DNA from: Candidatus Hydrothermia bacterium
GTDB lineage: Bacteria > Hydrothermota > Hydrothermia > UBA1063
Length of the DNA: 64,000 nucleotides
Direction of reading: 5' to 3'
Assembly: GCA_049719805.1 (NCBI GenBank)
Contig: JBNARF010000002.1
Coordinates: 15,805-79,804 of the forward strand
Shown: positions 49,493 to 52,915 of the stretch, in pieces
How positions within the stretch are numbered: the first letter of the stretch is position 1
How the letters are laid out: each line of letters opens with the position of its first letter
The notes under the pieces: model-generated
Databases searched by the model: none
Seen by the model: the letters and a program-made list of their open reading frames with translations, nothing else
Told to the model about the DNA's origin: nothing
Position numbers and translations under genes: made by a program

Positions 49493-49864
49493 TTGAAGAG
49501 GTATATGAGGAAGGAGTTTATATATCAGGAAAATCAGAAATTTTTATGCTATACAAAGAAAAGCAACTTAAAGAAGATGGAGGTTCAATATTCAAGGAGA
49601 TTAGGGAGTGGTAAGGCGGCAAGACCAGCTCTGGCTGAGAAAATTAGCAGTGATCTTTTCCGCGTTTGGATGCTGACCACTAAAAGCAGTGGTATAAAGG
49701 TGGATTTGCGAAATTGTGTTTCTAAATTCTGCGGATTGCCCCTTAAGAATATATGCTATGTTCCTCAAGATTGGCTTTTACACCTTAATTATAACCAATT
49801 TATCGAAATGTTTACTATTTGTGGTCCCTGCAATAATCTTGATTATTTGAATAAAATTGGTTAA
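49493..49864 (+). CDS. hypothetical small protein (possible Cys-rich metal-binding)
   Basis: 123 aa with CxxxxC and CGPC pairs. Overlaps the next gene by 8 nt. Weak coding call. Confidence 0.3.
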   Translation: MKRYMRKEFIYQENQKFLCYTKKSNLKKMEVQYSRRLGSGKAARPALAEKISSDLFRVWMLTTKSSGIKVDLRNCVSKFCGLPLKNICYVPQDWLLHLNYNQFIEMFTICGPCNNLDYLNKIG

Positions 49865-50627
49865 CATGAATTTAGCACCTATTTTCAGGAAATTCTTTGA
49901 AGGTACGATAACTCAAGAAGAGTTTGAAAGGCTAAAAGGGATGTTTACGAAGGTTTTACTTTCCCTGGACAGTAACCTTAGAAGTTCTCTCGTCATACCC
50001 TTTACGGGTGAAAGGGGGACAGGCTACCTTTCTCAGGAGATTATTGATGACCTTTTTGGTTACTTTTGCATCAGGCTCAAAGAAAAGGCTGGAACGCTGG
50101 ATAACAAAGTGGAGATTAATTTTCAGTATTTTAAAAGGATGGTGGAAAGTTTTGCACGGGATTTCTCTGAAGAAAATCGCGACCTTTTATTAATAAGATC
50201 CCTAGAGGACCTTTATAGCGCGAAGGAAAACGGTGAAAAAGGGGATGTTGAGGAAATGGCCAGTGTTATCTCAGGAGAAGAGAGCTATTTAATTGATAAG
50301 GCGATGCTGAAAGATTTTATTAACAAACTTAAGGAGACCTTAAGTAATAGAGAAAAAGAGGTTTTTTGTAGCACAGTCTGTGAGCTTTATAAGAGTTATA
50401 TTAATAACTCCAGAAAAAGGGAGCGTAAGACTGATGCCGAGTACAAAGCCTTTAGCAGGGCGAGGGGAAAATTTGTGGAGCTTGTAAAGAAGCACTTTGG
50501 CGGAGAAATTTATAATCTGGACGAGGTACACCTGGTACTCCTTGTCGGGATGATCTTGTCAGATTTATGCGGTTTTGGGGGTTATTTATATAAAAGGCAG
50601 AGACCTGAAAATGAAAGAGGAAAGTGA
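49857..50627 (+). CDS. hypothetical protein with possible sigma70-region4/LuxR-like HTH remnant (LSNREKEVF...RARGKF)
   Basis: 256 aa. Translationally coupled to flanking ORFs. Weak HTH-like segment only. Confidence 0.45.
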   Translation: MVNMNLAPIFRKFFEGTITQEEFERLKGMFTKVLLSLDSNLRSSLVIPFTGERGTGYLSQEIIDDLFGYFCIRLKEKAGTLDNKVEINFQYFKRMVESFARDFSEENRDLLLIRSLEDLYSAKENGEKGDVEEMASVISGEESYLIDKAMLKDFINKLKETLSNREKEVFCSTVCELYKSYINNSRKRERKTDAEYKAFSRARGKFVELVKKHFGGEIYNLDEVHLVLLVGMILSDLCGFGGYLYKRQRPENERGK

Positions 50628-51492
50628 TAGAATTCTGAAGGAAGTATATAAGGAGTATTTGTATTTTTTGAAAAATGGTGTACATTATCCCGCGCGGGCT
50701 GATAAATCAGCTCGCGCTGAAGTAAAAATCGGAGATTTAAGGCGAATCCTGGTGGATCCAACTATATACGTACTTATTGTAAAGAAGATTTCCCGCAAAC
50801 TTTTTGAAACCATTCCCTTTACCCCGTATGTGAAACTTGCGGCAGAGCCCTCCGTTCTTCTGTTCCTCAAAAAGTATATGAGATTTCTGGCACCTTTGCC
50901 TGCCAGGATATATATCCACGAAGATATCCTTTATTACCACAGCGTGCGGGAATCTGAGGTAGAACAATTTAATATAAAGAAGATTACGGATTTCCTGGAG
51001 AAAGTAAAATATCCTGATCACCCTGTAAAGGAGAAGTTTTTCAGGAAGGAAAACGAGAGGTACTCCGAATTTACCATGCAGAGCCTGGAGCTGGAAATGG
51101 AAGAGTATGAAGCTCTTCACGGTGAGCAGTTTGTTGAAGTTACAGTGCCTCAGGAAATTTACGAGAGGGTTTTTGGTGCATCTGAGAGTGAGGTTTCGAG
51201 GTTATATTATCTAATACCTGGAGAGCGAGCGTCCCGTAAAGAAAGGCCTCCAGCCTATCAAGCGATGACCAGGGAGCAAGTATTTCGTGTAAAAGATTTC
51301 CTTGTTTATCTGGAGGGTCAGGAGTCTTTCGTCTATTTGCCCGAGTTTTACTTAAATAAGGAGATTGAGCTTTCTATTAAAGATTTTACCCTCTTTCGTG
51401 GTACAATGGATAAAATCGGGTTTAAGCTGAAGTTTCCATCGGCTCCACCTGTTGAGTTGCTAAAGGAGTATTTATATGTTCAGGTTTATTGA
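50575..51492 (+). CDS. hypothetical protein
   Basis: 305 aa (likely start M at 50611). Overlaps both neighbours. No recognisable domain. Confidence 0.45.
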   Translation: MGVIYIKGRDLKMKEESDRILKEVYKEYLYFLKNGVHYPARADKSARAEVKIGDLRRILVDPTIYVLIVKKISRKLFETIPFTPYVKLAAEPSVLLFLKKYMRFLAPLPARIYIHEDILYYHSVRESEVEQFNIKKITDFLEKVKYPDHPVKEKFFRKENERYSEFTMQSLELEMEEYEALHGEQFVEVTVPQEIYERVFGASESEVSRLYYLIPGERASRKERPPAYQAMTREQVFRVKDFLVYLEGQESFVYLPEFYLNKEIELSIKDFTLFRGTMDKIGFKLKFPSAPPVELLKEYLYVQVY

Positions 51493-52915
51493 TTTTAAAC
51501 CAGAGCATCTTACAGCGTTTATAAGGAACGGAGTTTTGGATACGCTTTTCGATGAACTTCTCTCCGGATTCTGGAATTTCTATCCCGATGTTCAGTTTGA
51601 AATTGTTAAAAGATTTGAGAATTTTAGTAAAAAGGACGACCTGGCTTTACTTCTTGTTAAGCACTTTGAGATTCCCTTTGAGGACGCCCGAAAACTAATT
51701 AACGGCCCGCGGTTTTATTTTAAAATACCAGCGTTTTTCGATGATATTCTGCAATTTGTAGATATTATTTTGATACCTGAAACCTCAAGAATTATGACCA
51801 ATTTCCTGGAGATAACAGACTATTTAGAGATCATCGGGAAATGCTGTGGGAAAAAGTTTTTTATATTTTTTGATAAATTCTTTGACGACGAGAGTTTTAT
51901 GCTGCAGGTAGCCACAGTATTGAGGCTAGGTAATGTACCTGACCGCTACTGGTTTTTGGGTGCGATTGATGGTAAGTGCAATATTTTGCCCATTAAGAAC
52001 CTTGACTTGAAATTGCCTCTGATGGAAATTCAGGGTAAGAGAGGGATTTCTTACCCTCTGGCAAAGAATGTGAGGGACATTGAAAGATGGTTAAAAATTG
52101 AGACACACCACATACCGATTTTGATTATTGAAACTAATAATGGAGATGCAGGCGATCTTTTTGCGAATTTTCTGGGTATTTTAGGTCCTGAGGCGGAAGC
52201 CTCCTTAGGTGCTTTAAAAGCACTCTTCGGAATAGACGAAGATAATCTAATATTTGTTTTCCCGGGATTTGATGGAAGAGAAGAATGGTGGGAAAAATTT
52301 TCTGGTTTTTGTGCTTTTCTCAGGAAGGTGGAGGGCATCACCAGGGGAAGAATGCATTTTCACTTCGGGATTAAGAGCTCTCCCGGACTGGCTATGGCTT
52401 TAGGTATTTTATTTGGCAGCATGATACCCTTCTCGATTTATGATTTGGAAAAGCTTAAATTGTGTAGTGTGGTGAGCAATGTGCGGGAGTTAAAGACCCG
52501 GGTTCCTGACTATAAAATTAGGCATAAATTCGAATTGAAAAATCAAAGTGATGCTATTGTATATTTTAGACACAGGGAAGCTTCGGATTTACCCATAAAG
52601 AAGATTCAAGAAAGGCTGGATCTTATGGATGCGTCTATTGTTTCCATATACTTGAGGGGCAAATTATCACAGTGTAGGGTTAAGTATGTGGAGGTGGTAA
52701 AAGGTGTAACGTCTTTTATTCAGGACCTGCGCAAAGTTCATCCCTTTGGGAGATTCCACTTTTTCCCCAATATTCCCGCAACTTTATCATTTCTTCTGGG
52801 TGTATCTCTGGGGCACTACATGGAAGGAGTTATTTACAATTTTAACAGGTTCACGGACTCCTGGGGAAGGGTGTTGACCTTTTCAGATCTCAAGAGGTTG
52901 AGGGAAAGGTCTTAA
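51476..52915 (+). CDS. hypothetical protein, paralog of 57633-59093; triplicated Rossmann-like beta/Gly-loop/helix motif (candidate CARF/SAVED/SLOG-like sensor fusion)
   Basis: 479 aa. Shares EDARK, SFML..., ERWL...H.P... motifs with the 57633 protein. Also shares MHFHFGIKSSPGLAMALGILFGSMIPFSIY (cf. YFHLAIKGPIPLGFALGIIFGSMLPFTIY) and FHFFPNIPATLSFLLGVSLGHY (cf. FHFFFSSPVSLAFLLGVVFGHY). Confidence 0.6.
   Translation: MFRFIDFKPEHLTAFIRNGVLDTLFDELLSGFWNFYPDVQFEIVKRFENFSKKDDLALLLVKHFEIPFEDARKLINGPRFYFKIPAFFDDILQFVDIILIPETSRIMTNFLEITDYLEIIGKCCGKKFFIFFDKFFDDESFMLQVATVLRLGNVPDRYWFLGAIDGKCNILPIKNLDLKLPLMEIQGKRGISYPLAKNVRDIERWLKIETHHIPILIIETNNGDAGDLFANFLGILGPEAEASLGALKALFGIDEDNLIFVFPGFDGREEWWEKFSGFCAFLRKVEGITRGRMHFHFGIKSSPGLAMALGILFGSMIPFSIYDLEKLKLCSVVSNVRELKTRVPDYKIRHKFELKNQSDAIVYFRHREASDLPIKKIQERLDLMDASIVSIYLRGKLSQCRVKYVEVVKGVTSFIQDLRKVHPFGRFHFFPNIPATLSFLLGVSLGHYMEGVIYNFNRFTDSWGRVLTFSDLKRLRERS

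Follow-up and report, generated by a model that had tools for sequence, protein, structure and literature searches.

Which system is encoded by four tightly packed open reading frames (ORFs) that follow the remnant of a CRISPR array in a bacterium of the candidate lineage Hydrothermia? The four ORFs lie on the plus strand of a 64-kb stretch (hereafter the window) of contig JBNARF010000002.1, which is at least 580 kb long and belongs to a Candidatus Hydrothermia metagenome-assembled genome; all absences reported below hold within that window. A first-pass annotation, made from the sequence letters, had described the ORFs at coordinates where we also find them, and had taken them for a self-contained accessory or defence module without recognisable cas identity. 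Profile and alignment matches lead to another answer: ORFs 2-4 are very probably a divergent copy of the known CalpS/CalpT/CalpL (CalpSTL) system, an ancillary effector of type III CRISPR. The tripartite CalpL-CalpT-CalpS system has been described in Sulfurihydrogenibium (bioRxiv 10.1101/2021.12.06.471393; PMC11417357) and in Candidatus Cloacimonas (10.1101/2024.05.08.593097), and CalpL, present in 17 of 1113 type III loci surveyed, is seldom alone and often accompanied by Csx1 (PMC11229360). What is new here is a CalpSTL member in Hydrothermia; the kind of module has already been characterised, and its known mechanism is unchanged. The four ORFs, with the basis of each assignment, are as follows.

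49505..49864, plus strand: ORF1, a Cys-rich orphan of 119 amino acids (aa), or 123 aa from the TTG at 49493 (position, two gene calls)

49866..50627, plus strand: ORF2, calpS-like, 253 aa, a predicted sigma factor resembling the extracytoplasmic function (ECF) class (PADLOC PDLC01153, hhalign)

50611..51492, plus strand: ORF3, calpT-like, 293 aa, a predicted anti-sigma factor and protease substrate (PADLOC, hhalign)

51476..52915, plus strand: ORF4, calpL-like, 479 aa, with an N-terminal helical domain, a Lon-like Ser-Lys protease and a C-terminal SAVED sensor (PADLOC, Pfam and PDB matches)

ORF4 is matched over its full length by the PADLOC models CRISPR-Lon (3e-61, residues 10-470) and SAVED4--SAVED_LON (6e-57). 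Its SAVED domain scores above the cut-offs of both Pfam PF18145 (40.1 bits against 26.2, E = 4.2e-10) and NCBIfam NF033611 (43.7 bits against 33, E = 2.3e-11), and searches of the PDB retrieve CalpL itself (7qda/8b0r, 1e-14, residues 59-458) and AcrIII-2, a CalpL-derived viral SAVED protein (9r8s, 2.1e-22). To place the catalytic residues, ORF4 was aligned with a second CalpL paralogue of the window (CalpL2, described below), a further relative, P0005, and the Sulfurihydrogenibium and Cloacimonas proteins (SsCalpL and CCaCalpL), the sequences of the last two being read from PDB alignments. The Lon-type dyad S140/K179 of ORF4 occupies invariant columns with the proven dyads S152/K193 of SsCalpL (10.1101/2021.12.06.471393) and S154/K195 of CCaCalpL (10.1101/2024.05.08.593097). 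The bottom-side residues R361, K364 and K366 of SsCalpL (residue set from PMC11417357) are kept as R337, K340 and R342. Comparison with a 98%-identical strain, represented by Logan contig L016, gives nine synonymous and three non-synonymous differences in the calpL N-terminus, which is thus under purifying selection.

Identification of the two smaller proteins depended on calibrated profiles. Loci L002-L015, metagenome relatives of SsCalpL that were found with the SsCalpL sequence read from the PDB alignment, served as reference loci, and PADLOC models were run on their CalpS and CalpT orthologues to learn what each model marks. ORF3 matches PDLC01140 (1.3e-17) and CRISPR-T (6.4e-11), the models that are also matched by SsCalpT (CRISPR-T 2.4e-41, PDLC01140 2.2e-5) and by the CalpT of locus L013 (PDLC01140 5.8e-11). 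It aligns with the CalpT alignment in hhalign over 195 columns (E = 5.4e-4), and when the window is searched in six frames it is the best match of both the L013 CalpT (1.6e-5) and SsCalpT (4e-4). In two independent pairwise alignments the segment AYQA↓MT of ORF3 (arrow, scissile bond) falls on KHVA↓ST of the Sulfurihydrogenibium protein and SLVA↓ST of L013, the site in SsCalpT, A194↓S195, having been mapped experimentally (bioRxiv 10.1101/2021.12.06.471393). CalpL is therefore predicted, from these alignments, to cleave ORF3 after Ala218 in the interdomain linker (PAYQA↓MTRE). CalpT consists, according to the literature, of a MazF-like N-terminal domain and a DUF2080-like C-terminal domain; the sole PDB match of the ORF3 C-terminus is the CalpT10 fragment 8b0u_D, and it is weak (E = 0.49). 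The gene lies immediately upstream of calpL, as in loci L012, L013 and L001.

For ORF2 the only PADLOC model matched is PDLC01153 (named 'HTH', 2.7e-9), which is likewise the only model matched by Sulfurihydrogenibium CalpS (SsCalpS, 5.3e-15) and by the 41%-diverged CalpS of L013 (3.6e-10). Alignment to the CalpS family with hhalign covers 116 columns (E = 3.9e-4), BLASTP against the L013 CalpS gives 7e-4, and SsCalpS finds ORF2 as its best match among all six-frame segments of the window (9.6e-4), the two being reciprocal best matches within the window. The helix-turn-helix trace that the first-pass annotation had noticed in ORF2 (LSNREKEVF...RARGKF) is indeed present and lines up with the C-terminal part of reference CalpS; as a lead, this sigma-70 region-4-like trace was correct. 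The NCBIfam sigma70-ECF model TIGR02937 stays below threshold on ORF2 (17 bits, cut-off 42.9, E = 0.0035) and does not match reference CalpS. Profile searches, which had been proposed for each ORF and were run here with PADLOC and hhalign, thus identify ORFs 2-4 and leave ORF1 without any family match. The earlier view that all four lack a recognisable cas identity does not hold for ORFs 2-4, since CalpS, CalpT and CalpL models match each of them and the same models match the characterised orthologues.

Gene order and packing point the same way, the order calpS-calpT-calpL with overlapping or abutting genes being common to the window and to loci L012 and L013. Starts were placed at the ATGs at 49505 (ORF1), 49866 (ORF2) and 50611 (ORF3), on the basis of the public annotation and of an independent gene call on a related contig; the ORF3 start also agrees with the N-termini of homologous CalpTs. 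With these starts ORF1 and ORF2 do not overlap and are separated by a gap of 1 nucleotide (nt), ORF2 and ORF3 overlap by 17 nt, and ORF3 and ORF4 again by 17 nt, with a Shine-Dalgarno sequence, AAGGAG, 7 nt before the ATG at 51476. The overlaps of 8-53 nt that had been given for the four ORFs arose because the first possible TTG was taken as start; the tight packing is real, and the better-supported ATG starts replace the figures. The 17-nt overlaps at both junctions, together with AAGGAG, therefore indicate tight packing and probable translational coupling of ORFs 2-4, and calpS, calpT and calpL are probably one operon with coupled translation. What stands of the earlier description is accordingly that the ORFs are closely packed next to a CRISPR remnant as an accessory module, probably co-translated, in which ORF1 is counted by its position alone. 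A scan for promoters and terminators returned background levels only.

Coding potential was scored as a log-likelihood of codon use, for which 23 long genes of the window served as training set. ORF2, ORF3 and ORF4 score 0.165, 0.141 and 0.129 per codon, to be compared with a mean of 0.176 for windows of real genes (5th percentile 0.070, 1st percentile 0.048) and a 99th percentile of about 0.008 for off-frame windows. ORF1, at 0.015, falls short of even the 1st percentile for windows of real genes, lies near the 99th percentile for off-frame windows, and shows no periodicity of GC1, GC2 and GC3. The possibility that ORFs 1-3 might be non-coding is thus contradicted by the typical codon scores of ORFs 2 and 3 and retains some force for ORF1, which is marginal.

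Several observations weigh against the assignment to CalpSTL. ORF2 and ORF3 are very divergent: compared pairwise or by profile with reference CalpS and CalpT, they reach E-values of only 1e-3 to 1e-5. Pfam matches neither of them (it equally fails to match reference CalpS and CalpT), and a word-indexed search with ORF2 gave no relatives. Single-sequence AlphaFold2 models are too poor to confirm a fold, the ORF2 model being all-helical with a predicted local distance difference test score (pLDDT) of 58.9 and the ORF3 model having a pLDDT of 35.5; a Foldseek search of the low-confidence ORF2 model against the PDB returned noise (best E = 1.1). In ORF4 the top-side pocket residues of SsCalpL are replaced: H345 by D323, H392 by R367 (D371 in another alignment), S451 by N432 and H474 by N455. 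Ligand handling may therefore differ or be impaired. A residue close by, His366, might substitute, and the change of the pocket fits either relaxed selection or specialisation. Finally, the window's remaining ORFs of 120 aa or more, 36 in all, encode housekeeping or surface proteins, and none of them matches Cas10, Csm or Cmr.

Window-derived CalpL alignments used as queries found no related loci in genome or metagenome contigs, and word-indexed homologue searches with ORF1, ORF2 and the CalpL alignment returned self matches and one CalpL relative, P0005. When CalpL, CalpL2, Csx1 and the cas10 stub were looked up in other assemblies, nothing was on record. A search for the four-gene cassette elsewhere, another suggestion of the first-pass annotation, is borne out for three of the genes: the S-T-L order recurs in Sulfurihydrogenibium-type loci, where the slot of ORF1 is filled by an unrelated gene, C3a162.

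The surroundings of the operon are those of a decayed type III locus, and CRISPR repeats, cas6, a cas10 stub, csx1 and the second CalpL are all found less than 10 kb from calpSTL. They comprise the following.

49059..49158, plus strand: minimal CRISPR array, with a 30-nt repeat, a 44-nt spacer and a degenerate 26-nt terminal repeat

52916..54809, no strand assigned: ORF-poor stretch of 1.9 kb with no ORF of more than 72 aa and stops in all frames (ORF list)

54810..55562, plus strand: cas6 pseudogene, one frame of 250 codons with TGA at 55041-55043 and TAA at 55311-55313 (Pfam)

55620..55865, plus strand: cas10 5' remnant, encoding an 81-aa HD-domain N-terminus only (PADLOC, Pfam)

55937..57301, plus strand: csx1, an intact CARF-HEPN ribonuclease gene, given from its first ATG (the longest ORF starts at the TTG at 55901, 36 nt upstream)

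57633..59093, plus strand: CalpL2, the second CalpL paralogue, 486 aa, intact (PADLOC, PDB, BLASTP)

The array carries one copy of the repeat GTTCAGAGCCTACCTGTAAGGAATTGAAAC at 49059-49088, a single spacer at 49089-49132 and a second repeat copy at 49133-49158 that has a 4-nt deletion and lacks TAAG. It is located about 340 nt upstream of the ORFs, which therefore do stand directly downstream of a CRISPR remnant, as had been reported. The repeat matches Rfam CRISPR-DR2 at 31.3 bits (E = 0.011), short of the gathering threshold, and its end ATTGAAAC would, we presume, point to transcription of the array from the plus strand. The spacer has no match in a phage collection. Downstream of calpL, the stretch 52916-54809 gives no PADLOC match in its three plus-strand frames (the scan covered these frames only), and neither repeats nor Rfam matches turn up; possibly it is what is left of eroded, lost cas genes. 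The three pieces of cas6 match Pfam Cas6_I-A N-terminal (1.3e-3) and Cas_Cas6_C (1.2e-10 and 3.6e-15). With two different nonsense codons in a single frame, it is a pseudogene and not a frameshift artefact, as seen in this assembly alone. The cas10 stub matches PADLOC Cas10 (7.1e-11) at positions 1-53 of the 577 of the model and Pfam HD (2e-5), and is directly followed by csx1, which matches PADLOC Csx1/Csm6 (1e-52), NCBIfam TIGR01897 (1e-41, above cut-off), Pfam Csx1_CARF (1.5e-22) and Pfam Csx1_HEPN (1.1e-5).

CalpL2 is 29% identical to ORF4 (BLASTP 8e-57) and is the more canonical of the two, with a CRISPR-Lon match of 2.1e-113 against 3e-61 for ORF4, and matches of 4.5e-30 to CalpL in the PDB and of 3.1e-39 to AcrIII-2. 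It keeps the dyad as S141/K180, the equivalents of the pocket residues H345, H392, S451 and H474 and the bottom-side Arg/Lys patch, while S325 is not kept. No calpT or calpS adjoins it, a comparison of reference proteins with the six frames of the window revealed no further trace of either gene, and tblastn of CalpL2 against plasmids gave no match.

How does the Hydrothermia operon compare with the characterised systems? Sulfurihydrogenibium sp. YO3AOP1 CalpLTS (7qda, 8b0r, 8b0u) has the same S-T-L order with abutting or overlapping genes. SsCalpL and ORF4 share the N-domain, the Lon Ser-Lys dyad, the SAVED domain and the bottom-side Arg/Lys stacking patch; SsCalpT (271 aa) and ORF3 (293 aa) align collinearly, with a P1 Ala at the mapped cleavage site in both; and SsCalpS and ORF2 match the same profile. 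Unlike in that system, however, identity is very low (about 21% between ORF3 and the related CalpT of L013), the CalpS match extends over only part of the protein, and four top-side residues of the pocket for cyclic tetra-adenylate (cA4) differ in ORF4 (H345 D, H392 R/D, S451 N, H474 N). In Sulfurihydrogenibium cmr1-6 directly follow calpL, whereas no cmr is found downstream here; the gene before calpS is C3a162 there and the unrelated orphan ORF1 here; and the second CalpL paralogue is a further difference of the window locus. Candidatus Cloacimonas acidaminovorans CalpLTS (9eyi/9eyj/9eyk; 10.1101/2024.05.08.593097) follows the same tripartite logic, its dyad aligns, and both loci hold other cA4 effectors. 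Its CalpT linker is cut at an Ala motif, LAAA↓A, compared with the predicted AYQA↓M here. In Cloacimonas the genes run L-T-S and belong to an intact type III-A locus (csm1-5, cas6, cas1, cas2), whereas here they run S-T-L beside a decayed one, and CCaCalpL matches CalpL2 at 1.7e-15 and ORF4 at only 0.005. The closest solved relative of both CalpL SAVED domains is AcrIII-2 (vSAVED) of a Thermocrinis Great Boiling Spring virus (9r8s; 10.1101/2025.07.01.662501), which therefore places both in the Aquificae-type CalpL SAVED clade that binds and cuts cA4. AcrIII-2 is a stand-alone viral SAVED anti-CRISPR of 230 aa without a protease, whereas the window proteins are full-length SAVED-Lon proteins.

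The family membership of the three proteins, the protease dyad, the P1 alanine, the gene order and the purifying selection on calpL are directly supported, and the steps by which the proteins would act are inferred from the Sulfurihydrogenibium and Cloacimonas systems (10.1101/2024.05.08.593097; PMC11417357). CalpT would keep CalpS inactive while docked on CalpL via its C-terminal domain. Cyclic tetra-adenylate, made by a Cas10 that target RNA has activated, would bind CalpL's SAVED domain; CalpL would then stack into filaments, and the Ser140-Lys179 site of a neighbouring subunit would cut the CalpT linker, by prediction after Ala218. Housekeeping proteases would degrade the N-terminal CalpT fragment, and the freed CalpS could reach RNA polymerase and alter transcription. 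In regulation of the RpoE-RseA type, an anti-sigma factor holds an ECF sigma factor until cleavage at a specific site, and the degradation that follows, set it free. The likeness lies in the release of a sigma factor from its anti-sigma factor by proteolysis, and ORF2 has its weak sigma70-ECF match. The difference lies in the trigger, which is a membrane protease cascade in RpoE-RseA and a cytoplasmic, nucleotide-sensing SAVED-Lon protein in Calp, where the anti-sigma factor is, according to the literature, MazF-like.

Is such a pathway still in use here? The first-pass annotation was correct that the cas effector genes are missing: only 81 codons of cas10 survive, two nonsense codons interrupt cas6, and neither csm nor cmr genes are detected in the window. 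Interference and cyclase genes are thus gone from the local type III system, and the module either draws on such a system in another part of the genome or survives as an intact relic. That the module is CalpSTL by descent and now a non-functional relic, its cA4-supplying type III genes deleted and its ancillary genes not yet eroded, strikes us as possible but rather less likely than not. Consistent with a relic are the decay of cas6 and cas10, the 1.9-kb ORF-less stretch after calpL, a CRISPR array reduced to one spacer with a damaged terminal repeat, and the lack of any other detected cas gene in the window; ORF4 is moreover far more divergent than CalpL2 (CRISPR-Lon 3e-61 against 2e-113) and has lost the conserved top-side pocket residues. 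Against this, no interruption is seen in the three calp genes, in csx1 or in calpL2, all of which score normally for codon use; neither the protease dyad nor the Ala of the cleavage site has been lost; and the ratio of nine synonymous to three non-synonymous differences between strains indicates purifying selection on the calpL N-terminus. Ancillary effectors can also work in trans with a type III system elsewhere, and the 64-kb window shows only part of a contig that is 580 kb or longer.

The pair of CalpL proteins allows a more speculative proposal, to which we give little weight, namely that labour is divided between them. ORF4, which keeps the dyad and the bottom-side patch, would be the protease coupled to CalpT and CalpS, while CalpL2 retains most of the top-side His/Ser residues linked with cA4 cleavage that ORF4 has lost; through mixed filaments or sequential action the duration of the signal, governed by ring-nuclease activity, could be set apart from sigma release. 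Mixed SsCalpL mutants, R361E and H392E, do rebuild a composite active site (PMC11417357).

With ORFs 2-4 read as CalpS, CalpT and CalpL, what is ORF1? The protein is Cys-rich, as first noted, with 6 Cys in 119 aa that include CVSKFC and CGPC. It has no match in Pfam, PADLOC or NCBIfam, only a self match among 5.8 billion proteins in a word-indexed search, and no homologue among 1.84 billion representatives searched exhaustively with HMMER, where itself and one artefact match (P0006) were returned. P0006 was rejected as a homologue: this repetitive surface protein of 813 aa contains one weak match six times over, and the copies add up to its score. Most likely ORF1 is either a small gene peculiar to this lineage or an ORF that arose by chance in the operon's 5' leader; its coding status is doubtful, and no evidence beyond position ties it to the Calp mechanism.

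We regard it as unlikely that ORF1 is a real fourth component of the operon, a functional analogue of Sulfurihydrogenibium C3a162 that might act, say, as a small zinc-binding regulator of CalpS or CalpT or as their partner. A single nucleotide separates its stop from the start of calpS, gene calls in two assemblies include it, and by a rough estimate the probability that 119-123 codons stay open by chance in non-coding DNA of 37% G+C is a few per cent. In six Sulfurihydrogenibium loci the gene for C3a162 (159 aa, PADLOC 1.6e-48), listed as a type III accessory family (SYO3AOP1_0653; PMC6546367), abuts calpS in the same slot. Judged by eye, each of the two proteins has four candidate zinc-ligand Cys, with a final CGxC 10-15 residues from the C-terminus and a Cys-to-CGxC spacing of 30 residues in both. 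However, the C3a162 hidden Markov model (HMM) scores -0.6 bits on ORF1, and 119 of 300 shuffled sequences score as well or better; there is no BLASTP match between the two, no PADLOC C3a162 match and no homologue in the 1.84 billion representatives, and the codon score below the 1st percentile of real genes and the flat GC1-3 also speak against a fourth component. Homology of ORF1 to C3a162 is thus rejected at the sequence level (HMM, BLASTP and PADLOC), although the slot upstream of calpS is shared; that the two stand for a fourth, Cys-rich position conserved across calp operons is a further proposal to which we give little weight. The strain comparison carries no information on selection for ORF1, which is identical in L016, because the whole 48.8-50.7 kb stretch is identical.

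Two sets of observations on related contigs can be recorded here. Contig L016 (run DRR082460) is 98.1% identical to the window over positions 45465-51930 and is a mosaic, in which the stretch at 48.8-50.7 kb (CRISPR, ORF1 and calpS) is 100% identical while the sequence on either side diverges by 2.6-7.4%, a hint that the identical segment recombined recently or was carried by a sweep. Among the Sulfurihydrogenibium-type loci, C3a162, of 159 aa and with four conserved Cys, abuts calpS at L012:2901-3380 and likewise in L004, L006, L007, L009 and L011, the operon order being C3a162-calpS-calpT-calpL-cmr. On another such metagenome contig (L008:2573-3803), calpS and C3a162 are lacking before calpT, and their place is taken by a gene resembling that of a single-stranded DNA-binding protein (SSB), as read from the sequence, and by a 271-aa ORF, which suggests an insertion or replacement that orphaned CalpT and CalpL.

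The reading proposed first, that the four ORFs form a novel self-contained defence cassette unrelated to CRISPR signalling, could draw on the lack of homologues of ORF1, of Pfam domains in ORFs 2 and 3 and of a local Cas10, but is very improbable, given that ORFs 2-4 match the CalpS, CalpT and CalpL models as the characterised orthologues do and that the sensor is a SAVED domain whose closest solved relatives are CalpL and AcrIII-2, a viral protein that degrades cA4. Nor would ORFs 2-4 be self-contained: they are a downstream effector, because CalpSTL needs the cA4 made by a type III Cas10.

Two further features of the window lie apart from these genes. On the minus strand, positions 29269-43467 hold three consecutive giant ORFs of 1421, 2359 and 942 aa with a 184-aa ORF downstream; the 942-aa ORF has an NPCBM_assoc/NEW3 domain match, DUF11 and SdrD_B matches occur among the ORFs of the window, and the region looks like a cell-surface protein cluster. 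At 59533-60450, also on the minus strand, one ORF fuses an HPPK (folate biosynthesis) domain to both O6-methylguanine-DNA methyltransferase domains, an unusual combination.

Standard Pfam annotation would leave these CalpS and CalpT proteins hypothetical, and only defence-specific profiles that have been calibrated on characterised orthologues identify them. The assignment to CalpSTL, very probable as it stands, thereby extends the CalpLTS protease and sigma-factor pathway to the candidate lineage Hydrothermia. That calpSTL, csx1 and a second calpL have outlived their own Cas10 and Cas6 bears on the question of cyclic oligoadenylate effectors being kept for use in trans, and the two CalpL proteins, whose nucleotide pocket is canonical in one and altered in the other, amount to a natural experiment on the coupling between protease activation and self-limitation by ring-nuclease activity.

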